From the UHGV virus genome UHGV-0025829: DNA of 39,837 nucleotides. One strand, written 5' to 3'. Shown in pieces: positions 1-39,673 of this stretch. The notes under the pieces were generated by a model. That model saw only the letters and a list, made by a program, of their open reading frames with translations. It did no database searches and had not been told where the DNA came from. Position numbers and translations under genes: made by a program. The stretch is from a virus. How positions within the stretch are numbered: position 1 is the stretch's first letter; each line of letters opens with the position of its first letter.

Positions 1-74
1 ATGAAGTGAACGGTATTTCCCGCGTGGTGTATGACATCAGCGGCAAGCCGCCAGCTACCATTGAGTGGGAATGA
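1..74 (+). CDS. guaA: Host gene 3-prime end (partial CDS), probably GMP synthase C-terminus
   Basis: Frame 3 reads ...EVNGISRVVYDISGKPPATIEWE then TGA at 72..74. I recall this as the GuaA C-terminus; recalled, not verified. Confidence 0.45.
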   Translation, partial: EVNGISRVVYDISGKPPATIEWE

Positions 75-2185: not shown

Positions 2186-2832
2186 GCTACACGCTCCCGC
2201 CCCTGGTTGTCTGTTGGTGACAGCGGAGCATTGCTGAATGCATTTGTTAATCTGGCAATATCCAACGCGTATCCAGGGTGTAGTTGCACTGCTGGGTCTT
2301 CGCACTGATTACCCCAAACATCGAAGCCATGAGACGACTGGCGGGCGAACAGTTCAATGCGAGAAACATCGCCTAACAATTGCACAAGTTTTTCACGAAC
2401 GACATCTGGTTTTCTTGAATGCTCAAGCCGCGGTGCGGTAAATGACTGAACGATACCTGCATTAATGCGCGGAGGTAGTTTTCCCTTTACTGCAAACAGG
2501 CAATCTTCACTATTGGCGCGAGTCATGTGACCCATACCCATAACCAGTTTATCTGGTTGTCGACTACCACATTTTATCCACGTGAATCCCTTCATGGTCA
2601 TCAGACGGAATCCCCAGGCTTCAACAACTTTTAGTGCTTCGAGTGGTTGTGTTGGCACCCACCACATGGCCAACAGACAGTTTTCATCGGCCAAATCCCA
2701 CACAGGAAGGCGGCAGATATCCAGCACACTCATAACCGGATATTTAAAACCGGCACCGCGATTACCATCTGCGGCTTTGTCCCGGTATACCCAGGGTGGA
2801 TCTGCATAGATTAGTGTGTATTTCTTAGTCAT
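2182..2832 (-). CDS. DNA N6-adenine methyltransferase, MT-A70 family
   Basis: LIYADPPW motif near the N-terminus; GGGGTGG Shine-Dalgarno before ATG at 2832. Confidence 0.75.
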
Positions 2833-3091
2833 AAACCACCCCACAACATCCTATGCCGCTATAGTCGCCACGGCGAAGGCCGTTACCTTTTGTGATACAT
2901 TGGTCCCTGCGAACCGCGATCCTTGCACGCTCAACATCACCAGAAGCAACATCCATACACTGAAGCCAAAGGTTGGCGGCAATGCGGAACTGCCCTTTTT
3001 TCTCTCTTTCAATCGCGCGTTTTTCGATCTCTATCGCCGCAGGAGAAACGGCAACAACCTTTGAAGGGCTGCGCATTGAAACCTTGTTCAT
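2825..3091 (-). CDS. Hypothetical small protein
   Basis: ORF overlapping the MTase start by 8 nt; start uncertain (ATG at 3091 or 3076). Confidence 0.35.
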   Translation of the reverse strand: MNKVSMRSPSKVVAVSPAAIEIEKRAIEREKKGQFRIAANLWLQCMDVASGDVERARIAVRRDQCITKGNGLRRGDYSGIGCCGVVYD

Positions 3092-3233
3092 GTGATATTT
3101 TTCAAGTCTGCTTAACTTTCTCACTTAATCCAACCCTCTCTGAAAATTAATGCCAGCAGATAAAGCCATGCTGAAACAGAGGCCAAGAATAAGTACCATC
3201 ATGACCATTTGCTCCAGTGCCTTAGCAGCGCAC

Positions 3234-5291: not shown

Positions 5292-5494
5292 AACTTAACC
5301 TTGTATTCGTTCTGCTTGTTGGAACGGGTTCCATCGTGGAAATATATTGCGCTCCTGGTTACCTCTACCCATTTGCGACGTTCAAGCTCAGCGATGAACC
5401 AAGAAACCTTCGATCTTGAGATACCAAGAATCTTTGCCATATCTCGGATGCTGTGTTTTCCACCTCGCAGCAATGAGAGGAGTGTTGGTTTCAT
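5288..5494 (-). CDS. Small winged-HTH DNA-binding protein
   Basis: 68 aa, DMAKILGISRSKVSWFIAELERRKWV HTH-like segment; ATGA coupling on both sides. Confidence 0.5.
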   Translation of the reverse strand: MKPTLLSLLRGGKHSIRDMAKILGISRSKVSWFIAELERRKWVEVTRSAIYFHDGTRSNKQNEYKVKL

Positions 5495-5945: not shown

Positions 5946-6026
5946 AACTTGTTACCTCGGTCTGTTACCGTTGAGGTAATGATTATGCGTATTTGGTTTG
6001 GTGTCAATAGATATGAGTTAAAAAAA

Positions 6027-6098: not shown

Positions 6099-6683
6099 TT
6101 ATTGTTTGTTTTTTTCGTTCTGGTTGATGACAAATTCAATGTAACTTTCGATCTTTGCTTTCTCGGTTTCGGGTAACAATGCGTAGCGCGAGCGGTCATA
6201 GTTGATGGTCGCAGGGTCGTGCGGGTGAATCAGTAATTCATAGCCGTGACGCCCGAATGCGGATGCAACATTCTCCAGGGTGGAAATGGAAACGCTGACC
6301 TCATTGTTTAACAGGCGGCTGATTGTCACCTGGGCGACGCCGGATGCGCGGTGAAGTTTTCCCTGTGTTGAAAGGTCGCGGCTTTCGCTCATCCAGCGTT
6401 CCAGGTTGTGAGCCGCCAGCTGACCTATATCGCTCGGGCCGACAGGCTGAAAACCTTCCTGAGAAAGCGAGCGATCGATATCAAGCCAGTTACGGGGTTT
6501 ATTGGCGGCAGCTTCAATTTTTCGCGCAACCTGGTCGCCGATAACCTTCTTGCCAAGAGCCCAGCGGTTTACCAGATTTGCCTGAGTTCCAAGTTTTTCT
6601 GCCATCCGCGTCTGAACACCATTGAATTCACGGTCGATCAAGTCGTTGAGATTTTGCCTGCGGACGTCCTGGATACTTTTCAT
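6099..6683 (-). CDS. Immunity repressor (CI-like), two HTH domains, no recognisable S24 peptidase domain
   Basis: Divergent from the Cro-like gene with operators between; HTH segments MAEKLGTQANLVNRWALG and ASGVAQVTISRLLNNEVSVSISTL; no Ser-Lys autocleavage motifs seen. Confidence 0.7.
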   Translation of the reverse strand: MKSIQDVRRQNLNDLIDREFNGVQTRMAEKLGTQANLVNRWALGKKVIGDQVARKIEAAANKPRNWLDIDRSLSQEGFQPVGPSDIGQLAAHNLERWMSESRDLSTQGKLHRASGVAQVTISRLLNNEVSVSISTLENVASAFGRHGYELLIHPHDPATINYDRSRYALLPETEKAKIESYIEFVINQNEKNKQ

Positions 6684-10212: not shown

Positions 10213-10973
10213 GCGAAATTAATTACCAGGCACTGCGTGAGGCGGCGGAACGTGCAATTCCAGCAATGGAACGCCTGTTAATGTTGCCAGCTGATGATGA
10301 TTTGTTAAGTGAACAGGAACTTAAAGATTACGGTGTGGATATTGATGCGCTCAACGCCTTCAAATTTCTGACCGGACCAGAAACCGTGCTGGCACTACTG
10401 GATGAACGGGAAAGAAACCAGCAATACATCAAACGCCGTGACCAGGAGAACGAGAATATTGCGCTAACGGTTGGGAGGCTGCTAATCGAAAACGGCCAGC
10501 TTGTTGCCGATACGCTACGCCACTTAGCTGATAACGAAATCGACTCTGATTATTTTGCTATCACCTCAACGAATGAGAACGGTACTGAAATTGATCATGA
10601 GATGGCTATTACCTATTACGCACTGCAAGCTGCCGGAACTGTAGACGAATTGGTTGCAGCGCTGGAATCCGCAGAGAAGCGCATAGCAGAACTGGAAGCC
10701 GAACCTGTAAGCCAGGCTTACAAGTTGAACGCGCTGGATGGCAACTCTCCGGTAACTCCGGATAGTTGGATAAGCTGTAGTGAGCGAATGCCGGATACCA
10801 AAACAGCCGTTCTTGTTGCCAGGGAGTTTGACAGGAAAGGTGACTGGCGAATGAAATGGGCGACTTACATCCCGGGGCATCCTGACGCTAATGATGGGTG
10901 GATAATTCCTGGTGCGTCGTGGAAACCGTCACACTGGATGCCGCTACCAGAACCGCCGCAGGAGGCGAAATGA
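10209..10973 (+). CDS. Ea22-like protein with C-terminal DUF551-like domain
   Basis: GTGA overlap with upstream stop; C-terminal SWISCSERMPDTKTAVLV...W...HWMPLPEPP resembles DUF551. Confidence 0.5.
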   Translation: MSEINYQALREAAERAIPAMERLLMLPADDDLLSEQELKDYGVDIDALNAFKFLTGPETVLALLDERERNQQYIKRRDQENENIALTVGRLLIENGQLVADTLRHLADNEIDSDYFAITSTNENGTEIDHEMAITYYALQAAGTVDELVAALESAEKRIAELEAEPVSQAYKLNALDGNSPVTPDSWISCSERMPDTKTAVLVAREFDRKGDWRMKWATYIPGHPDANDGWIIPGASWKPSHWMPLPEPPQEAK

Positions 10974-11230
10974 TGGATGTAAAAGAGAAGGTTTTGCAGG
11001 TGATGCGTTCCCGGGCTGCCCTGCAAGATAAAGCTCTCGGCGGGGAATATCCATTCAGGATGGCAACCTGGAATCTGCGGTTGGCAATGGAGAAGGGATT
11101 TCCTGATGAAGAATGGCGTTCGGCAGATTTGCGCAAAATTCTTATGGAGCTGGCTAAAAACGGAACAGTATCCAAAGATACCCATGCCAGCCGGATTGGT
11201 CAGGCGGTATGGAGACTGGAGGTGAGGTAA
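10972..11230 (+). CDS. Hypothetical protein
   Basis: ATG overlapping the upstream stop; 86 aa. Confidence 0.4.
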
Positions 11231-11511
11231 TGGCTAACCTGCAACTTGCCGTCAAAGGTGAATACTTCGATGCCATGATTCACGGAGATAAAACGGAAGA
11301 GTATCGCCTGTGTAATGACTACTGGAATAAGCGAATCATGTTCCGGGAATATGACCGTCTGATTATCACAAAGGGATATCCGAAGCGCGACGATTCCAGC
11401 CGCAGAATTGATGTTCCGTATGGCGGATATGAAATCAAGACAATCACGCATCCGCACTTCGGTGATAAACCGGTAAAGGTGTTCGCGATAAAGGTGAATA
11501 TCAATGGCTAA
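11230..11511 (+). CDS. Hypothetical protein (possible ASCH/PUA-like fold)
   Basis: TAATG overlap with upstream gene; 93 aa. Confidence 0.4.
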   Translation: MANLQLAVKGEYFDAMIHGDKTEEYRLCNDYWNKRIMFREYDRLIITKGYPKRDDSSRRIDVPYGGYEIKTITHPHFGDKPVKVFAIKVNING

Positions 11512-11842
11512 ATCAGCAGCAGAGCGCAAAGCCGCTCAGAGAGCCAGACAAGCTGCATCCGGTGTACGTAAGCTGGAGATTGTGCTTGATGCTCAGGAAA
11601 TTGAAATGCTGGAGCGTAACTGTGCCACTCGTCGCCCCGGGCGTGCACCTTACGAATTTGGTGAGTATATCGCGTTACTGATCCGCCAGGATGATGTACG
11701 CGTGCGCGGGCGTATAAAATCGATCAGCAGAAAACGTTGCGGTAAGTGCGGCGAGAGAGTTCCTGTGAATTCATGCCCGTGTAATGGTGACTCGCAATGC
11801 TGGGTGACTAAAGGCTGGCATGAAACGAAATTAATAGTGTGA
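11504..11842 (+). CDS. Hypothetical protein with basic N-terminus and C-terminal Cys4 zinc-ribbon-like motif
   Basis: CGKCGERVPVNSCPCNGDSQC; last gene before the late operon. Confidence 0.45.
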   Translation: MAKSAAERKAAQRARQAASGVRKLEIVLDAQEIEMLERNCATRRPGRAPYEFGEYIALLIRQDDVRVRGRIKSISRKRCGKCGERVPVNSCPCNGDSQCWVTKGWHETKLIV

Positions 11843-11850
11843 CATGTCAC
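11839..11850. repeat. 12-bp perfect palindrome GTGACATGTCAC (copy 1 of 3)
   Basis: Exact sequence also at 14290..14301 and 32086..32097. Confidence 0.7.
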
Positions 11851-12072
11851 GAATGTGTTATGCCAAAAATACGCTACGACCTTGAAGATATGAGAGATAA
11901 CTCAGCAAATTTTCCGAAAGAGGTTAAATTTCTCATGCATAAGTATGGTTGCGCCAGGAGGGATATAGTTATCGACAGTCACCACCCTTGCGGCGAGGAT
12001 GTAATTTTCATTCGCGGTAAATGGGAAGGGTATCTTGACGAGAGTTTTTACGATGAATTTGATGGACTTTGA
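11839..12072 (+). CDS. Hypothetical protein (start uncertain: GTG 11839 or ATG 11860)
   Basis: ORF ends 26 bp before terminator; GTG start would coincide with the GTGACATGTCAC palindrome. Confidence 0.4.
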   Translation: MTCHECVMPKIRYDLEDMRDNSANFPKEVKFLMHKYGCARRDIVIDSHHPCGEDVIFIRGKWEGYLDESFYDEFDGL

Positions 12073-12077
12073 ATACT

Positions 12078-12103
12078 GCCGCCAACTATGGCGGCTTTAT
12101 TTT
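12078..12103 (+). terminator. Rho-independent terminator separating early genes from the terminase operon
   Basis: Stem GCCGCC/GGCGGC, loop AACTAT, then TTTATTTT. Confidence 0.65.
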
Positions 12104-12114
12104 GCATGGTACTA

Positions 12115-12129
12115 TTACCATAACGGTAA
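12115..12129. promoter_or_regulatory. Operator palindrome TTACCATAACGGTAA upstream of terminase small subunit (plus degenerate copy 12133..12147)
   Basis: Perfect half-sites 21 bp before the terS ATG. Confidence 0.55.
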
Positions 12130-12149
12130 CAATTACCAGGGTGGTTATT

Positions 12150-12743
12150 ATGCCTGCTGAACCTAAAACCTATAAACGCAAATCAACGCAATTTAAGCCG
12201 CTCACAGCAATGCAGGAGGCTTATTGCCAGTCATACATCAAAACGCCTGAAAACCAGACTCAGGCAGCGATTAACGCAGGATTCTCCCCAAATACAGCGG
12301 CAGTTAAAGCCAGCGTCATGATGCGCGATGAACGCATTCAAAAACGGATTGCCGAGTTGATGGAAGAGCGCAACAAACGAATGCGCGTCAGTGCTGATTA
12401 CGTTCTCATGCGCCTGGTGGAGATCGACCAGATGGACGTGATTGATATCCTCAACGACGATGGGAGTCTTAAGCCAATCCGCGAGTGGCCGAAAATATGG
12501 CGCACTACGCTTAGCGGCTTTGATCTGTCATCGACCATCATGAACATGAACGAGGACTCGATAGAGACAATCCTCAAAAAAATTAAATGGCCTGACAAGG
12601 TGAAGAACCTAGAACTGATTGGTAAGCACGTCGACGTCAACGCATTTAAAGAACGCCTGGATGTTAATGTGAATGTGACAATTGCTGATCGCATAGCAGC
12701 AGCCAGGAAGAGACTGAAAGAACGTCAGGATGGCAATCAGTGA
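12150..12743 (+). CDS. Terminase small subunit
   Basis: Immediately upstream of and overlapping the large subunit; LTAMQEAYCQSYIKTPENQTQAAINAGFSP resembles the Terminase_2 family. Confidence 0.75.
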   Translation: MPAEPKTYKRKSTQFKPLTAMQEAYCQSYIKTPENQTQAAINAGFSPNTAAVKASVMMRDERIQKRIAELMEERNKRMRVSADYVLMRLVEIDQMDVIDILNDDGSLKPIREWPKIWRTTLSGFDLSSTIMNMNEDSIETILKKIKWPDKVKNLELIGKHVDVNAFKERLDVNVNVTIADRIAAARKRLKERQDGNQ

Positions 12744-14215
12744 CAGATGCAGCGTTATCTCCTGAAGAGCAGTTGATCGAGGATATTGCAGGGTTTACTC
12801 ACGATCCGCTTGGTTATGCCCTCTATGCGTTCCCGTGGGGGGAAGAGGGGACTGAACTGGCACATGCTACCGGACCACGTCAGTGGCAGGCCGATGCGTT
12901 CCGAGAGATACGTGATCACCTGCAGAATCCCGAGACGCGCTATCAGCCGCTTATGCTGGCACGTGCTTCGGGTCACGGTATTGGTAAATCAGCACTCATC
13001 TCAATGTTGATCAACTGGGGCATGTCCACTTGCGAGGATTGTAAGGTCGTGGTGACCGCCAACACCGACAACCAGCTACGAACGAAGACCTGGCCGGAAA
13101 TTATCAAGTGGTCAAACCTTGCTATCACGAAAGACTGGTTTACCTGTACCGCTACCGCGATGTACAGCAATGACCCTGGGCACGACAAGCGGTGGCGAGC
13201 TGACGCAATCCCTTGGTCTGAGCACAACACTGAGGCATTCGCCGGACTACACAACGAGCGCAAACGCATCATCGTGGTATTCGATGAAGCGTCGAACATT
13301 GCCGATCTGGTGTGGGAGGTAGCAGAGGGTGCGCTGACGGACGAAGACACCGAAATCATCTGGGTGGCGTTCGGGAACCCGACGCGTAACACCGGGCGTT
13401 TCCGTGAATGTTTCCGCAAGTACAAACACCGCTGGAAGTGTGCGCAGATTGACAGCCGGACGGTGGAAGGCACTAACAAACAGCAGTTGCAGAAATGGGT
13501 TGATGACTACGGGGAAGACAGCGACTTCGTTAAAATCCGTGTGCGCGGCATATTCCCTGATGCATCTGAATTGCAGTTTATCCCTACCGGTCTTACTGAT
13601 GAGGCAATGAAACGGGTGGTAACCGCTGCGCAGGTTGCACATGCTCCGGTGATAATCGGCGTTGACCCGGCATACTCAGGCGTTGATGACGCGGTGATAT
13701 ACCTGCGGCAGGGGCTGCACAGTAAGGTGCTGTGGACTGGCAACAAGACTACTGACGATCTGATTATGGCGAAGCGTATCGCTGACTTTGAAGACCAGTA
13801 CCAGGCTGACGCAGTGTTCATCGACTTCGGTTACGGAACTGGTCTGAAGTCAATCGGTGACGGCTGGGGTCGTACATGGCAACTTGTTCCGTTCGGTGGC
13901 GCGTCTACTGACCCGCAGATGCTCAATAAGCGCGGGGAGATGTTCAACTCATGCAAGACATGGCTGAGGCTGGGCGGCATGCTTGATGACCAGGAAACAG
14001 CGGACGACCTGTCGGCGGCAGAGTACAAAGTTCGAGTGGACGGTAAAATCGTTATCGAACCGAAGGAAGATATCAAGGAGCGGCTTGGGCGTTCTCCTGG
14101 TAAAGGCGATGCGCTATTGCTGACGTTTGCTTTCCCTGTGTCGAAGCGTCTGCGAATTCCAGGTCAGCAGAACCAGCAAGGCAAGGCCATTACAGATTAC
14201 GATCCCTATGCTTAA
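12740..14215 (+). CDS. Terminase large subunit
   Basis: GTG start overlapping terS stop; ATPase Walker A-like ARASGHGIGKSALI; 491 aa. Confidence 0.85.
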   Translation: MTDAALSPEEQLIEDIAGFTHDPLGYALYAFPWGEEGTELAHATGPRQWQADAFREIRDHLQNPETRYQPLMLARASGHGIGKSALISMLINWGMSTCEDCKVVVTANTDNQLRTKTWPEIIKWSNLAITKDWFTCTATAMYSNDPGHDKRWRADAIPWSEHNTEAFAGLHNERKRIIVVFDEASNIADLVWEVAEGALTDEDTEIIWVAFGNPTRNTGRFRECFRKYKHRWKCAQIDSRTVEGTNKQQLQKWVDDYGEDSDFVKIRVRGIFPDASELQFIPTGLTDEAMKRVVTAAQVAHAPVIIGVDPAYSGVDDAVIYLRQGLHSKVLWTGNKTTDDLIMAKRIADFEDQYQADAVFIDFGYGTGLKSIGDGWGRTWQLVPFGGASTDPQMLNKRGEMFNSCKTWLRLGGMLDDQETADDLSAAEYKVRVDGKIVIEPKEDIKERLGRSPGKGDALLLTFAFPVSKRLRIPGQQNQQGKAITDYDPYA

Positions 14216-14265: not shown

Positions 14266-14285
14266 AGCCAGTTCATAGGCTGGCT
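14266..14285. terminator. Bidirectional terminator hairpin between convergent terL and minus-strand ORF
   Basis: Stem AGCCAG/CTGGCT flanked by T-rich sequence on both strands. Confidence 0.5.
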
Positions 14286-14289
14286 GTTT

Positions 14290-14301
14290 GTGACATGTCA
14301 C
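14290..14301. repeat. 12-bp perfect palindrome GTGACATGTCAC (copy 2 of 3)
   Basis: Exact match; lies between ORF stop and terminator. Confidence 0.7.
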
Positions 14302-14305
14302 GGTG

Positions 14306-14677
14306 TTATTGCTCGCTTAACTTCTGCTTCAGCAAGTAACCTTCAAGCATCCAGATTTTGTTTACAGCATTCTGCCGGGCAATCTTCCGACCAATTTCTG
14401 CATCAAAGTTTTCCTGGCTTGCACAGGCGCTCTCTCCGGTGACGGTGAAGCCGTTGCGCAGCACCAGGACGCAGAACGTCAGCAGAGAAAGTGATTCGTG
14501 CGGCTGGTAGTTTACCTCTCCGCCAGTATGTTTCGCTTTTATGGCTTTGCCAAAGGCACCATCCTCTGCTGTGAAATATGCCTCCTGAGCAATAATGCTT
14601 TCGATATGGTCTGGCGTAACGCGCGGAGCAGTTTTGCCTTTCTCAACGATTTCTTTTTCGATTTGCTGGTCGTTCAT
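14306..14677 (-). CDS. Hypothetical moron protein
   Basis: 123 aa on the opposite strand to the flanking late genes; AAGGTGA SD; downstream of the tRNA on the same strand. Confidence 0.55.
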   Translation of the reverse strand: MNDQQIEKEIVEKGKTAPRVTPDHIESIIAQEAYFTAEDGAFGKAIKAKHTGGEVNYQPHESLSLLTFCVLVLRNGFTVTGESACASQENFDAEIGRKIARQNAVNKIWMLEGYLLKQKLSEQ

Positions 14678-14875: not shown

Positions 14876-14952
14876 TGGCGTGGCATGCAGGATTCGAACC
14901 TGCGACCAACCGCTTAGAAGGCGGTTGCTCTGTCCAACTGAGCTAATGCCAC
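14876..14952 (-). tRNA. tRNA-Arg (anticodon UCU)
   Basis: Reverse complement folds as a cloverleaf: acceptor GTGGCAT/ATGCCAC, anticodon loop CTTCTAA, T-loop GGTTCGAATCC, 3-prime GCCA. Confidence 0.85.
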
Positions 14953-27380: not shown

Positions 27381-29179
27381 GTTACTTTGGCCTTAATCCA
27401 GTAAACCAGAATCAGCAGCTTGACGAAGCAGCATCAAATCCAGTTGTCTTTAACAGCGATGTTGGTTTTTTCGACAATGCTGTAGGAGCGGCATTGTCTG
27501 GTTTGTACTCCGGGCTGGTGGCAAAGCCAGATCAGTTGCTCTGGGCAGGGATGGATAAAATCGTATCCCCGATTGCTCAGTTTGTTAACGAAAACACCTC
27601 GATCAATGACACTTCAGTTTCATACATTGCCGAGCAGAGAAAACTAGCAGAGCAGCAGGTTAAGCGGCTGACGCCTGATGCCGCGACAACCGGAACCGCC
27701 GGGCAGGTTCTTTATGGGTTGTTCGATATGGGCGGGCAGGCTGTTGTCGGTACAACGCTCGGTGGTCCTGTCGGAGGTGCAGCGGCGGTAACTTCGCTAC
27801 AGGGTTTTTCTGAGTTTGAACGGCTGACAGCACAGGGTGTTGATTTCAGGACGGCGCAGGAAGCGGGATTAGTGCAGGGCATTACTGCTGGTGCCGGAAC
27901 ACTGATCCCTATGAGCCTCGGGTTACGTGCTGGTGGTGCGCTGGCGGAAGGTGTGGCGGCTCAGCTTGCGCGGACGGGTGAGAGTTCAGTGCGACGCGCC
28001 GCAGCAACAGCAGTACGTGCAACGCCAGATATTGCCTATGCCGCAGGTACAAATATTGCGTTCGGTATGGCACAGCGTGGGCTTACTGCAAAAACGCTTC
28101 GTGATGGTGGCTATAGCGAAATGGCTAACCAGTATGATGTGTTGGATCGACAGGCAATTGCTATTGATGCTGTTCTTGGGGTGGCGTTTGGTGGTGTCGG
28201 CAGATTTATTAACTCTCGCGGCGAGTCTACAAACGCACCAAATTTTTCACCAGTTGATATCGATGCTGCACTGGCGGCGAATGCCGCTCATCATGCTGAA
28301 ATTGATATTGCGCCCGGCGTGCCGATCAACGTGCTTTCGCGCAATTCTCACATTCAGGCTCTGCGAAAAGCTATGTCTGATGTTAGCCAGGGGAGACCTG
28401 TAGACGTTGCCAGCATTGTTGAGTCTGCATCTTTCAGTGAAATTCCTGGGCGCAAGAGTCTGCTGTCTCAGGCAGTTAATGAGGCTCTGTCATCTGTAAA
28501 TGATGGAGTAACGGCGCGCGCTATAGAAAATCGGTTGCTTGAAGAACAGGCCGCGCAGCTTTTGCCGCGTGGCGATAGACAGGTTTACCAGTCTGAAATC
28601 GCTAATAGCCAACGAATTATTGAAAATCTCACTGAACAGCGCGCACAAATTCTTGCAGAAGAGTCAACCGGCAGCGGTAAAGCTTTGTCTCGTGCTCGAT
28701 CAGATAAACAGGTCAGACTTCGCGATATTGACCAACGAATCCGGCAGGCACAAGAACGCCTGGAATTTTCCCGTAACGCGTTGGCACCGCATGAGCCTGG
28801 CGGTCAGTTTTTTGAAGCTCGAGCAGAACTGGCACGGAGACAGCAGGCTGAAAGTGAACTTAATGCTCAGGCTGTTTCATTCTATAAAACAGCAGAGGTC
28901 AGGACGCCAGACGAAGTAGCTCCTTTTGAGCCCGGTAAGATATTGCAACAGACAGAACAAAAAATGATGGCAGATCCGGCAGGAGATATTGATCTGCGTA
29001 TAGCTGAAGACTCGCTGCTTGAATCTCCGGACATGATAATCACCGTGCTGGATGATGATGGTAATCCACAATCGCGCAGTGCGCGTGAAGTACTGGATGA
29101 AGCGAACAGGGAAAGTGAGCAGGCAATACAGGATTCCAGCCTGTTTGATGTCGCTGTGGCGTGTTTCTTGAGAGGTTAA
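27377..29179 (+). CDS. Internal virion (ejection) protein
   Basis: 600 aa, ATGA overlap with the upstream gene; Ala/Gly-rich N-terminal half. Confidence 0.5.
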
Positions 29180-31668: not shown

Positions 31669-32082
31669 ATGAAGGAATTATTGCTGTTATCGGTATTTTT
31701 GATATCCGCTTGCTCGACATCCTATGATGTTTATGACGGTGTTGATAAGGCATATTGCGACAAAGTTAAAATGGATTTTTCTCTTGCCAAGACGGCGAAG
31801 GATAGTTGTATTGATCACTACGTCAAGACTTATACCAAGCCAGCCTCATCGGCATCTGATATTGCTGAAGGTGCTGTGTTTGAGTGTAACAAGGTGATAT
31901 CCATCGCAGCGAGTTCTTCATACGATGCTGCTGTATGTGCAATGGCTGAAAGAAACGGCATGTCAGTGCAAAAAATTAATAGCATGATAAGCAGTAATGA
32001 CGAAGCCAAAATAAGAACTGATATCAGCTCGGTGAAAAAAGATGCCATGAACAGAGTTGTAAAATATCAGTCATCTTTATAA
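31669..32082 (+). CDS. Lipoprotein (candidate superinfection-exclusion / moron)
   Basis: Signal peptide MKELLLLSVFLISAC with lipobox; six Cys in the mature part. Confidence 0.6.
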   Translation: MKELLLLSVFLISACSTSYDVYDGVDKAYCDKVKMDFSLAKTAKDSCIDHYVKTYTKPASSASDIAEGAVFECNKVISIAASSSYDAAVCAMAERNGMSVQKINSMISSNDEAKIRTDISSVKKDAMNRVVKYQSSL

Positions 32083-32085
32083 GTC

Positions 32086-32097
32086 GTGACATGTCAC
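32086..32097. repeat. 12-bp perfect palindrome GTGACATGTCAC (copy 3 of 3)
   Basis: Exact match 4 bp after the lipoprotein stop and directly before the terminator. Confidence 0.7.
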
Positions 32098-32098
32098 A

Positions 32099-32122
32099 GG
32101 CCGCTTTCGCGGCCTTGTTTTT
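32099..32122 (+). terminator. Rho-independent terminator ending the late virion operon
   Basis: GGCCGC-TTTC-GCGGCC followed by TTGTTTTT. Confidence 0.7.
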
Positions 32123-33098: not shown

Positions 33099-33810
33099 TC
33101 AGAAGAACCCAGCTTTGTCGTTGATGTACTCCGCGTGCGTCTGGATATCACGCAGGCATTTACTCACACCAACGATGTAGCAGAACATGGTGGTCAGTTC
33201 CGCCGCCGCGCCCGATACATCATGCCCGTCGTCCTGCAACTGATTCAGCAGATTCATCAGCAATGAGTTCTCCGTCAGGCCGAGAACACCAGACGGTGAA
33301 TGAATCAGACTGCGGTAGCCTGGCTTCAGTGGGGCACTGTAGGTTTTGTTCTCTATCTTCATTGCCTGTATTACTGCTGACGCCGTGGCGTTGGCTACCT
33401 GGTCGGCAACCATCTTTATGCGTTCTTCCTGCGGGAGCGAGTTTTTAATGTAACTTCCGGTGCGGCGGATCTGAGGAAGAACCTCACCTGTAACCCATTT
33501 ACGAAAGCGGTAGGGGATAGTGCCTGGTGTCACCGCATCGCGGCAGCGGAGGATCAGTGTGTAGAGGCCTGACTCGGAGATGATGTTGATCTCTTTTACT
33601 CGGCTGTCAAAAATTGCACGATGTTCATGCCCTATGTTGAACATAGACCTTTCATCATCATCCAGTTTTTCAAGTGATTGGGTGACGTTTTGGATACGCA
33701 GCGCACTACAAACGTCTTGGGCTACAAACCATGGTTGGCCATCGATAATGATGGAACGGATAGGGTTAACAGATTCAAATTTGAAGATGGCAGTTTGAGC
33801 ATTAGCCATG
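33099..33810 (-). CDS. Antirepressor (Bro-N / Ant-like N-terminal domain plus C-terminal domain)
   Basis: FKFESVNPIRSIIIDGQPWFVAQDVCSALRIQNVTQSLEKLDDDE matches the Bro-N fold pattern; ATG at 33810 with GGAGAT SD; C-terminus paralogous to the 34125..34382 product. Confidence 0.7.
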
Positions 33811-33827
33811 GTGGTTATCTCCACTTA

Positions 33828-33841: not shown

Positions 33842-33963
33842 CACCGCAACGCCAATTACTGGTGGTGAACTGGACAAGGTTGGCGTACCGGCCTAAGTGG
33901 TACCGGCGTCCTTTCGGACCCCTGCCCAGCCCACCATAATTCGGATATGGCTGTGCTTAACGC

Positions 33964-33988
33964 ATAAAAAAACCACGTCTGGCGTGGT
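33964..33988 (-). terminator. Rho-independent terminator inside the ant upstream region
   Basis: ACCACG-TCTGG-CGTGGT hairpin with T-run on the minus strand. Confidence 0.5.
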
Positions 33989-34078
33989 ATGCGCCACTTA
34001 GTAACTCGGGACGCCAATCCCGGCACTGGATTTTGCCAGTACCCGATTACTATGGCACAAGAGGAGTGCGATGTAAAT

Positions 34079-34577: not shown

Positions 34578-37280
34578 ATGACGGTCTCAACCGAAGTTGA
34601 CCACAACGAATACACAGGTAACGGCGTTACGACATCATTTCCTTATACCTTTAGGGTTTTCAATAAATCTGATCTGGTAGTGCAGGTGATTGACCCTGAC
34701 GAGAATATCACTGTGCTGGCTCTTGATACTGATTACACGGTGACGGGGGCTGGAGGATATACTGGCGGGAATGTTGTGCTGATGTCCCCGCTGGCCAACG
34801 GATGGCAGATTTCTATCTCGCGTGACCTTCCAGTTACCCAGGAGACTGACCTACGCAACCAGGGGAAGTTCTTCGCAGAAGTGCATGAAGATGCGTTCGA
34901 CAAGCTGACCATGCTGATCCAGCAGTGCTTCAGCTTTCTCCGACTGGCGCTGCGCAAGCCGTCGTTCATCGCTAACTATTACGACGCGCTCAACAACCGC
35001 ATTCGTAACCTGCGTGACCCGTCACAGGAACAGGATGCGGCCACAAAGAATTATGTTGATGGTCAGATTGTTGACAACACCAATGCATGGAAAGCCGCGG
35101 ACGTCGTTCTTGATAATAAAATTGACAGCAATTTTCGGCGCACTCTTAGGGTTCCTGAGAGCAATATCCAAGTATTGCCTACCATAGATGCAAGAAAGAA
35201 GAAATTATTCGCCTGGGATGATTCAGGAAATCCAATTTCTGTACTTCCTGAATCAGGATCTGCGTCTGATGTTCTTATTGAGTTAGCTTCCAGTTATGGT
35301 TTTAGCCTTATCGGGCAGGCTACGTATTCGCAGATCCGTAATTTCACAGGATCAGGTAACTCAATAATGTGCTGCGGTTGCGAAACACTTCTGGATGGTG
35401 GTCAGGGCATGTTCGATCAGGTTCCTGGTGGGGCAGTTATGACCACTCCAGACGATGGCTGTGTATTTATTCGCGATACTATTGGGCGGTTATGGAAACG
35501 CCGTTATGAGGGAAATGAGATCCTGATGGCATGGGCCGGGGCTAAAAGCCTGAAACAAACTTCGGAACCGCAGGACCCGGCCTTTAGAAAGTGCCTTCAG
35601 GCCGCTGCCTCTTTGTCTGAGTCAGGCTATCCGCAATCTATTATCCGGGGGCTGGACAACGCCACCACATACCTTGCTGAAAAGCACCATATCCGCTGCG
35701 GTAACTTCCCGGAGTACATGGCGTGGAAACTTCCACCTGACGGCGGCGGCCGGCGTTTCGGTATTAAAGGGACGTGGGCTCAGGGGTTAGGTGCCGGTTG
35801 GTTTGTCGTACAGGCTAACCATCCGCTGTTCGATTTCACAATCGATAATACCGGCATTGATTTCAATCTGGATGCGTATACCGATGAAGAAATCAAAGTC
35901 CTCGTCGAAGACAACTATATTTTACGTCTGGAGGCGATGGTAAATGCCCCGGAATTTAATGTTCATGCAGGCAACCACCCGGGGACTGTACTTTACAGCC
36001 TCGGTAAATCTGATTATTCAGCGGTAACCGCACAGTGGCCTGATTTGACTACAGTGCTTCCGTCTATCCAGAACGTGGGCAAAGCGGCGTTTAATATTAA
36101 GCACTGCGGCAGGGATTTCCTGCTGAAGAACTGCGGTGCGGGTATGGGGCATTTCCACTCCGTCTGGACACAGGATAACTCTCAGCCGGGATATATTTAT
36201 TCCTGTTACGACCTGACGTTGACCTATGAGGACTACGTCCCCCATACAGAAGAACGCGGGGGGCTTATTTTCGAAGCGTGCGGGACCCTGTCTCTTGAAA
36301 ATATCCTGACCGGTGCGGGAGGCGTCGGGCATTTATGCATCTGGGACTGTCGAAATGTGACCATCAACAAGCACGTCTCGATATGCGGCGCACCTACCTA
36401 CGCGCAGTCGAACCCGAATCTGTATGCCGTGGAAATCTGTAACTCTGAGCTGGCTGTCTATGGTGTGCATGCCCAGGGCTCTGGCAAGTTTATGCGTATC
36501 GGCTTTAACTCACGCGTGACGTTCTACCACACGACGGCGTGGGACATTGCGCAGATGATTCTGGGTACCAATGACCTGAGTCTACTGAAGTATCGTGGTC
36601 AGCGAGCTGCGGTCCTTAACGACCCTATTAAAGTATTCCTTGAATCTGGATTTGTTCAGTCTGCGAATACTGCAGATAAGGGCTGGCCTTGCCAGCCGCT
36701 GATCGTGTTTGATGAAACAATCGGTGGTGATTTCCAGCTGTTGTTCAACCTCGAGGCAAATAATAACCACTCAGGATACGATACCCAGCCTGAGGCGTTA
36801 CTTGCGCTGATAGATATTCGATCTACCAGTCCTAATGGCGAGGTTGTCTTGGGTGAGCAGTCAAAACTGGAAGGTAATACGACAAACTACGTTGTGCGGC
36901 TGGCGAATAAAAACCAGCTCAAGGACGTATTTACTCGCAAAACTAACTTTGTTCGCATCCGGTATACGGATGATAACTCACAGTCTTCCTTTGCTTTGAG
37001 GCATGCTAATCACCCACTTCAAGGTACGGTTGTTGGACGTAACGCGTCCTACTCATATCCATATAAGCGTCCTGGCTTGTACAGCGTCAAAATCACTATT
37101 CCATCCGGTGGTGGATCTTTTTCTGTAACGCATAACGGATTCACGATTTATGAACAGGACCAGCCTGGAATTCATCGTGTACTTATTGATCTGAGATTCC
37201 AGGAAACCGTGCAGATCACTATTAACGGTGGCGAAAACGTCACTATGACAAACGCCGAATGGCGATATTATGTGGGGTAG
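34578..37280 (+). CDS. Tailspike / tail fiber with T7 gp17-like N-terminal adaptor domain and beta-helix-type receptor-binding body
   Basis: 900 aa; N-terminus YTGNGVTTSFPYTFRVFNKSDLVV resembles podovirus tail-fiber N-termini; GGAG SD. Confidence 0.75.
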   Translation: MTVSTEVDHNEYTGNGVTTSFPYTFRVFNKSDLVVQVIDPDENITVLALDTDYTVTGAGGYTGGNVVLMSPLANGWQISISRDLPVTQETDLRNQGKFFAEVHEDAFDKLTMLIQQCFSFLRLALRKPSFIANYYDALNNRIRNLRDPSQEQDAATKNYVDGQIVDNTNAWKAADVVLDNKIDSNFRRTLRVPESNIQVLPTIDARKKKLFAWDDSGNPISVLPESGSASDVLIELASSYGFSLIGQATYSQIRNFTGSGNSIMCCGCETLLDGGQGMFDQVPGGAVMTTPDDGCVFIRDTIGRLWKRRYEGNEILMAWAGAKSLKQTSEPQDPAFRKCLQAAASLSESGYPQSIIRGLDNATTYLAEKHHIRCGNFPEYMAWKLPPDGGGRRFGIKGTWAQGLGAGWFVVQANHPLFDFTIDNTGIDFNLDAYTDEEIKVLVEDNYILRLEAMVNAPEFNVHAGNHPGTVLYSLGKSDYSAVTAQWPDLTTVLPSIQNVGKAAFNIKHCGRDFLLKNCGAGMGHFHSVWTQDNSQPGYIYSCYDLTLTYEDYVPHTEERGGLIFEACGTLSLENILTGAGGVGHLCIWDCRNVTINKHVSICGAPTYAQSNPNLYAVEICNSELAVYGVHAQGSGKFMRIGFNSRVTFYHTTAWDIAQMILGTNDLSLLKYRGQRAAVLNDPIKVFLESGFVQSANTADKGWPCQPLIVFDETIGGDFQLLFNLEANNNHSGYDTQPEALLALIDIRSTSPNGEVVLGEQSKLEGNTTNYVVRLANKNQLKDVFTRKTNFVRIRYTDDNSQSSFALRHANHPLQGTVVGRNASYSYPYKRPGLYSVKITIPSGGGSFSVTHNGFTIYEQDQPGIHRVLIDLRFQETVQITINGGENVTMTNAEWRYYVG

Positions 37281-39636: not shown

Positions 39637-39673
39637 TCTTCAAGAATTATAGGCTTGAAGTTACTTACATCGA

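Follow-up and report, generated by a model that had tools for sequence, protein, structure and literature searches.

A ribbon-helix-helix protein with a Cys4 module in epsilon15-type prophages and a candidate palindromic DNA site at operon boundaries

Regulators of the ribbon-helix-helix (RHH) class, including P22 Mnt and Arc, CopG, TraM, NikR, and the RHH antitoxins, carry a C-terminal oligomerization or partner domain. We compared these and other described systems with a gene at positions 11504 to 11842 of the virus genome UHGV-0025829 (39,837 nucleotides [nt], hereafter called the window), whose product combines an RHH fold with a C-terminal Cys4 module, and with a 12-bp palindrome, GTGAC-N2-GTCAC. 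New here is the finding that this palindrome lies over the stop codon of the gene and recurs after terL and after the last structural gene. Like the RHH regulators named above, the protein has an extra C-terminal domain, and its short palindromic candidate site would fit one dimer; unlike them, it carries a Cys4 zinc module, and its candidate sites are found at the 3′ ends of genes and at terminators instead of over promoters. The Escherichia coli MatP site matS has the 13-bp consensus GTGACRNYGTCAC (GTGAC-N3-GTCAC), reportedly described by Mercier et al. in 2008, and MatP is reported from the enteric, Vibrio, and Aeromonas orders. The half-sites GTGAC and GTCAC of the phage palindrome are identical to those of matS, both motifs form few, dispersed single sites per replicon, and the hosts of the phage family fall in the MatP-bearing orders; however, the phage spacer is 2 nt and not 3 (N2 in 25 of 27 sites from 13 genomes or contigs, with one N3 site), and the phage protein lacks the N-terminal four-helix bundle of MatP. 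Homology to MatP was considered and rejected (hhalign probability, 0.5%; no Pfam MatP match in 59 family members), the similarity being of the generic RHH structural kind only.

Two further systems bear on how such a protein might act. As with the gene for lambda-type Q, the gene described here is the last of the early-right operon (setting aside an accessory insert described below), and in both cases a DNA site lies upstream of the terminator that precedes the late genes; the protein has no sequence or fold similarity to Q, however, and its site is not inside a promoter. TraR and DksA, which bind the secondary channel of RNA polymerase, have in common with it a helix followed by CxxCGxx(L/I)P ... 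G ... C and a short C-terminal helix. Profile matches to them are marginal, the ligand pattern differs from their CxxC-x17-CxxC finger, and the acidic tip residues are absent. Finally, repressor operators are spread across the lytic operons as in epsilon15 and in the SPC32H Rep/Ant system. The terminator-plus-operator layout in front of the small terminase gene terS is the same in the window as in the epsilon15 record, the Rep of the window is a homologue of SPC32H Rep, and nothing essential differs.

We put at about even chances the reading that the RHH and zinc protein binds GTGAC-N2-GTCAC and acts at operon boundaries, not as a classical late activator. Exactly three copies of GTGACATGTCAC, a perfect 12-bp palindrome, occur in the window, against an expectation of ~0.005 for any given 12-mer. 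The gene and the three sites are as follows.

11504..11842, plus strand: target gene, encoding the RHH and Cys4-zinc protein of 112 amino acids (PHROG 536; epsilon15 gp49/N15 gp46 family)
11839..11850, no strand: palindrome site 1, GTGACATGTCAC, overlapping the TGA stop codon of 11504..11842
14290..14301, no strand: palindrome site 2, GTGACATGTCAC, after terL and 4 nt from the hairpin of terminator T2
32086..32097, no strand: palindrome site 3, GTGACATGTCAC, abutting terminator T3

A gap of 4 nt also separates site 2 from the stop codon of 14306..14677, a convergent gene, and site 3 begins 3 nt past the last structural gene (31669..32082). By its sequence, the window belongs to the epsilon15/phiV10/TL-2011b type of prophage (genus Uetakevirus): positions 10800..13200 share 93 to 97% identity with phages of this type, gene order is the same as in TL-2011b and epsilon15, and both Uetakevirus-type Rep operators and an encoded Rep homologue are present. 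E. coli, Salmonella, Klebsiella, and Enterobacter commonly carry such prophages. In a set of 80 close relatives (573 kb), the target gene is kept in 79, and its copies carry site 1 over the stop codon either exactly (76/79) or with one mismatch (3/79); the same placement at the stop codon recurs in epsilon15, Tyrion, SPN9TCW, TL-2011b, Klebsiella phage 13.3, and N15. The site 2 position is occupied in epsilon15, Tyrion, SPN9TCW, and ~72 of the 80 close relatives, and that of site 3 in epsilon15 (19517), Tyrion (20377), and SPN9TCW (19663), so that all three positions, together with their terminator neighbors, are common to these three phages and the window. Spacing is nearly fixed, with 144 N2 sites in the close relatives versus 1 at all other spacings combined. 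A literature search for the palindrome returned nothing relevant to phages. A fourth GTGAC-N2-GTCAC in the window, GTGACCCGTCAC at 35014..35025, lies within the tailspike gene and may be there by chance.

The motif also accompanies the gene into other genomes. We surveyed 13 other homologue-bearing genomes or contigs (394 kb), including Uetakevirus phages, N15, an N15-like contig, ZF40, Vibrio-type phages, and metagenomic contigs. Nearly all carry the motif, usually less than 150 nt from the gene, and the half-sites are spaced by N2 in 25 cases, by N0 and N3 in one case each, and by N1, N4, N5, or N6 in none. The control genomes of lambda, P22, and P2 (124 kb) contain zero N2 sites; lambda (L021) does have two 11-mers of the form GTGAC-N1-GTCAC. 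The positions relative to the gene, and to terS where it is involved, are as follows.

N15: motif over the stop codon of gene 46; two further copies elsewhere
Contig L010: motif over the stop codon
ZF40: motif beginning 3 nt past the stop codon of gp22; two further copies elsewhere
L013: motif over the start codon
L026, a Mu-like prophage: motif within the 3′ end of the gene
L027 to L029: motif 14 nt past the stop codon
L025, Vibrio type: motif 138 nt past the stop codon; a second copy precedes the terS ATG by 23 nt
Vibrio phage K233: three copies, one of them 31 nt before the terS ATG
L017 and L018: two copies in tandem, 23 bp apart
P2-like Yersinia phage: two copies, 33 bp apart, one of them mismatched

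Further N2 sites are found in a Mu-like prophage and in another Vibrio-type contig. With a distant Aeromonas homologue the site takes a different form, that of four copies of the variant 12-mer GTGACCGGACAC, of which one precedes the gene by 25 nt. Across these cases, the outer half-sites and the N-terminal basic helix of the protein are conserved, and the central dinucleotide and the beta-strand vary; from the few data points at hand, this pairing of conserved with conserved and variable with variable is consistent with RHH recognition. The palindrome is thus most likely the DNA site of the target protein, a candidacy drawn from their co-occurrence. Some copies deserve mention in their own right. 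Those in N15 (L009) are at 28550, 33237, and 39269; one lies inside repA, and the repA-like gene of the N15-like contig (L014) has one at the same place (5092), and another N15 copy is intergenic, with gene 33 on one side and, on the other, the terminator annotated before genes 32 to 30. In K233 (L012, 35942) and L025 (13026), two diverged Vibrio-type phages, the palindrome and the terS start codon downstream of it are 11 to 19 nt apart, and a T-run ends ~20 nt before the palindrome, an arrangement that resembles the terminator-plus-site layout before terS.

The protein itself has a ribbon-helix-helix fold and a C-terminal Cys4 module, with a conserved basic N-terminal helix and a long helix; it would act as a dimeric DNA-binding protein with a zinc-bound C terminus. 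The original prediction had pointed to an open reading frame (ORF) with a basic N terminus and a Cys4 zinc-ribbon-like motif, and both features are present in the 112-residue product: 7 of the first 23 residues are K or R, and cysteines occur at C79, C82, C91/C93, and C99. Among 59 diverse aligned homologues, C79 and C82 never vary and C99 seldom does (kept in at least 90%), R8 and R13 of the basic N-terminal helix are kept in at least 90% of members, and a PYxxxEY...LIRxD helix and the motif CxxCGxxLP...C...G(D/E)xxC are conserved. An N-terminal beta-strand is followed by two helices, as in solved RHH structures. Sequence models capture this fold poorly: no Pfam or NCBIfam model matches the protein above threshold, curated RHH models appear below threshold only (NCBIfam YbfE; E, 0.05), and Pfam RHH_5, RepB-RCR_reg, and RHH_1 match just 1 or 2 of the 59 members, with E above 0.01. 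A phmmer search with the single protein found no match among Protein Data Bank (PDB) sequences. The protein does match PHROG 536, annotated “transcriptional regulator” (E, 6e-54), and a search of 1.84 billion cluster representatives yielded only 148 related clusters; homologues number roughly 700. The start ATG at 11504 shares bases with the stop codon of the preceding ORF, and this overlap suggests translational coupling inside the early-right operon. One divergent member is found in SPN9TCW (L024, 38401..38661), where the homologue is shorter and has a different N terminus (MATTTTRRQN...) without the basic helix; by tblastn, the same is true of SPC32N.

The surroundings of the three sites include the following terminators and accessory DNA.

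11860..12072, plus strand: accessory (moron-like) ORF between site 1 and T1 (PHROG 1541; E, 7e-39)
12078..12103, plus strand: intrinsic terminator T1, closing the early-right operon (stem 12078..12095, then TTTATTTT)
14266..14285, no strand: terminator hairpin T2, after terL, with a T-run for the minus strand only
32098..32122, plus strand: intrinsic terminator T3 (AGGCCGCTTTCGCGGCCT, then TGTTTTT; −16.5 kcal/mol)

In Uetakevirus, each conserved site is directly 5′ of a functional terminator in the sense in which that terminator is transcribed, which is the plus strand for T1 and T3 and the minus strand for T2. The T2 and T3 hairpins have a T-run on one flank and the palindrome on the other, and in a TL-2011b-type variant that lacks site 2, T-runs flank the hairpin on both sides. 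At each site, too, a conserved lytic operon gives way to variable accessory DNA. The insert 11860..12072 is present in 25 and absent from 50 of the 75 close relatives in which it could be scored, and to the right of site 2 the 80 relatives carry more than eight unrelated modules, split exactly at the palindrome. This placement, beside terminators and at core/accessory junctions, suggests a role at operon boundaries. The target protein would be made as a distal product of the repressor-controlled early-right operon, which starts at a Cro-like gene (6838), takes in the replication genes, and extends to 11504..11842; terS and terL follow it. During lytic growth it would bind the three palindromes (11839, 14290, and 32086), and the bound protein would modulate termination and read-through, or insulate convergent transcription units, at operon boundaries; activation of the terS promoter from the upstream site forms no part of this model. 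Through termination or read-through, the protein may nonetheless have a role in late expression. An Rfam scan of 11400..12300 found no RNA family. In Klebsiella phage ST512-KPC3phi13.3 (L008, ~5300..5360), a different gene is inserted where the window has 11860..12072, and this insert is preceded by a LexA-box-like sequence, TACTGTTTAAATATACAGTA.

The following features bear on the control of terS.

6099..6683, minus strand: prophage repressor Rep, homologue of Salmonella phage SPC32H Rep (PDB 5D50; E, 4e-42)
12107..12115, plus strand: putative extended −10 element of the terS promoter, TGGTACTAT, read from sequence
12115..12129, no strand: Rep operator copy, TTACCATAACGGTAA (TTACC-N5-GGTAA)
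12133..12147, no strand: second, weaker operator, TTACCAGGGTGGTTA, with one mismatch, overlapping the terS ribosome-binding site
12150..12743, plus strand: terS, small terminase subunit (Terminase_2; E, 1e-29)
12740..14215, plus strand: terL

A strong terminator and an operator copy had been predicted in front of terS, and both are borne out: T1 folds at −14.5 kcal/mol (z = −4.1 versus shuffles), is kept in five relatives, and coincides with a terminator annotated in the epsilon15 record, and the element at 12115..12129 matches TTACC-N5-GGTAA exactly. Copies of this operator number 9 exact and 6 with one mismatch in the window, against 0.68 expected, and flank the rep gene at 5965, 6027, 6739, and 6787; Rep is their presumed binder. 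The epsilon15 GenBank record annotates “protein_bind: repressor” sites before terS (12..27), before the portal operon and the tailspike gene, and around the repressor gene, all with sequences of the form ATTACC-N5-GGTAAT, as well as a terminator (39646..39672) after gp49, the target-gene homologue. The terminator-plus-operator layout before terS is therefore ordinary for the genus and already public in that record. The sequence TGnTACTAT is common to the window, TL-2011b, epsilon15, Tyrion, Klebsiella phage 13.3, and SPN9TCW, and the final T of this element doubles as the first operator base. PL shares this geometry, in that AATCAT (~5979 to 5984, minus strand) runs directly into TACC (predicted PL: TTGACA, 17 nt, AATCAT, then TACC). 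The second operator at 12133..12147 is kept in relatives as a degenerate site. As the simplest reading, we infer that terS has its own sigma-70 extended −10 promoter, which Rep would shut off directly; on/off control of the terminase operon would then be exerted by Rep through two operators that overlap this promoter just past the early-operon terminator. Direct shutoff by Rep would already explain the on/off control of terS, so that repression of this gene can be accounted for without any new regulator.

These features bear on the late-regulator question, for which no description of late gene timing in Uetakevirus-type prophages was found in the searchable literature. The original prediction had seen no recognizable late regulator in the window and had offered the target protein as a plausible candidate for one. 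As the missing late activator, the protein would bind upstream of the terS promoter, and perhaps of other late promoters, and recruit RNA polymerase to promoters lacking a −35 element. The first part of the prediction stood up: PHROG and Pfam scans of 26 early and accessory proteins returned no Q, Ogr/Delta, or Mor/C, the regulators found being PerC-like, AlpA-like, and Cro-like proteins, Rep, and Ant. The Pfam Q families (Phage_antiter_Q, Phage_AntiQ, and others) matched neither the target protein nor any other scanned window protein, in a search for which N15 gene 40 served as the positive control (E, 1e-110), and Ogr_Delta matched neither the target protein nor any of the 59 family members. 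The target protein is thus not a Q, Ogr, or Mor protein. In favor of an activator are the lack of any Q, Ogr, or Mor homologue encoded in the window, the position of the gene at the distal end of the early-right operon, which is the place of Q in lambdoid phages, its presence in 79 of the 80 close relatives, the putative terS promoter with no recognizable −35 element, and the Vibrio-type phages, in which the homologue is the last early gene before the lysis and packaging genes. Homologues coexist, however, with Q in N15 (Pfam E, 1e-110), with a separate Ogr in a P2-like Yersinia phage (E, 2e-19), and with Mor in a Mu-like prophage; ZF40 has a gene annotated as Q-like that has no Pfam match. 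Nor do the sites sit where an activator would be expected. Site 1 precedes the putative −10 element by ~85 bp or ~270 bp, according to whether the accessory insert is there, with a terminator standing between it and the terS promoter; neither the portal nor the tailspike operon has a palindrome upstream of it, and sites 2 and 3 are at operon 3′ ends; and the Vibrio phage sites at 11 to 19 nt from the terS start codon leave no room for a promoter downstream. The repressor operators on the late operons, moreover, suggest promoters that fire without a phage activator, and that of terS would be under Rep control. We therefore consider an activator improbable. The gene had also been taken for the last early gene, and in the window this fails in the literal sense, since ORF 11860..12072 intervenes before the terminator.

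A protein loaded at the palindrome might instead modify passing RNA polymerase, possibly by means of a TraR/DksA-like zinc module, and so suppress the adjacent terminators, joining early and late operons into long late transcripts. The placement of all Uetakevirus sites directly 5′ of a functional terminator fits such an antiterminator, as do marginal matches of the family profile to TraR and YbiI over the helix and zinc region (E, 0.03 to 0.05; hhalign probability, 47%). The fourth zinc ligand is placed unlike that of TraR, however, the late operons have operator-linked start regions of their own and do not obviously need read-through, T2 ends a minus-strand accessory transcript and not a late one, and the sites of other lineages are not near terminators; we regard antitermination of this kind as unlikely. 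Similarly doubtful is its extension to an undescribed phage transcription switch, in which an RHH dimer on 12-bp sites beside terminators would present a TraR/DksA-like zinc module to arriving RNA polymerase and, by antitermination or enforced termination, set the early-to-late program in the many temperate phages without Q, Ogr, or Mor. The palindromes could also be sequences of module boundaries or recombination, that is, cassette-exchange junctions or parts of conserved terminators, with their linkage to the gene due to shared ancestry. The unrelated modules that break exactly at site 2 in the 80 relatives would agree with this, and site 1 marks the left edge of an insert that differs between phages (none, PHROG 1541, or, in the Klebsiella phage, a LexA-box gene), and site 3 borders variable minus-strand accessory genes. 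Yet the motif follows the gene into the unrelated architectures of N15, Mu-like, P2-like, and Vibrio phages, where no mosaic junction can be seen at some copies, which are internal to coding regions or immediately precede terS, and the strict 2-nt spacing, palindromic symmetry, and covarying variants in Vibrio and Aeromonas typify a protein recognition site. We give this reading little probability.

The boundary reading, which we prefer, faces difficulties of its own. Protein and site are paired here through their co-occurrence, and no site is near the gene in L014 (nearest, ~5 kb), L017 (~2.1 kb), or L030 (none in 3.9 kb). The SPN9TCW homologue lacks the basic N-terminal helix, yet all three palindromes are kept there; conversely, some close relatives without site 2 still keep the target gene. 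Outside Uetakevirus, the sites do not adjoin terminators, and a boundary role may be specific to this lineage. The DNA on one flank of each site is highly mosaic, which a recombination junction would fit too. All of these points count against binding of the palindromes by the protein at operon boundaries. The mechanism is also weak at one step, as a roadblock 4 nt past a hairpin does not match the known geometry of RNA polymerase roadblocks. For this reason, a palindrome-bound roadblock that replaces the missing T-run was set aside, despite the conserved layout of T-run, hairpin, and palindrome; it is one option within the boundary model. Two further roles were rejected. Partition or centromere function was considered because some carrier phages encode ParA-like proteins, but the integrating Uetakevirus have none, and the gene is not adjacent to parA. 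An accessory role in packaging (pac) was suggested by the site before terS in two Vibrio-type phages and here, but no site is close to the terminase genes of N15, ZF40, or the Mu-like prophage.

With these comparisons, an unnamed but widespread phage family annotated only as “transcriptional regulator” and without a Pfam model gains a fold, a conserved zinc site, and a precise candidate DNA target. Sites at operon ends beside terminators are an unusual placement for RHH regulators. If binding is confirmed, the family would offer a simple system for protein control of termination or for core/accessory insulation, and the palindrome would provide a new sequence tag for annotating operon boundaries.

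Several observations concern the rest of the window. The late operons seem to be under direct control of the prophage repressor: Rep-type operators (210, 5965, 6027, 6739, 6787, 7124, 9070, 9132, 12115, 12133, 15275, 33018, 34079, and 34459) head nearly every transcription unit, late units included. Three of them are ~15 to 20 nt past a terminator (terminator/operator, 6059-6078/6027, 7090-7109/7124, and 12078-12095/12115). The sole annotated “activator” in the window is a PerC-family protein encoded at 2825..3124 on the minus strand, in the early-left operon (Pfam E, 4e-7; PHROG 868). On the minus strand, 33858..33941 and 33966..34042 match the Rfam families C4 antisense RNA (66 bits) and isrK (63.5 bits); both stretches lie a short way upstream of ant (33099..33824, minus strand), which encodes the antirepressor, and they point to RNA control of Ant resembling that of P1 immI. 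The variable region between terL and the portal operon contains a tRNA-Arg gene (anticodon TCT) at 14876..14952 on the minus strand, and a tRNA-Arg gene occupies the same place in SPN9TCW and in a Klebsiella phage.

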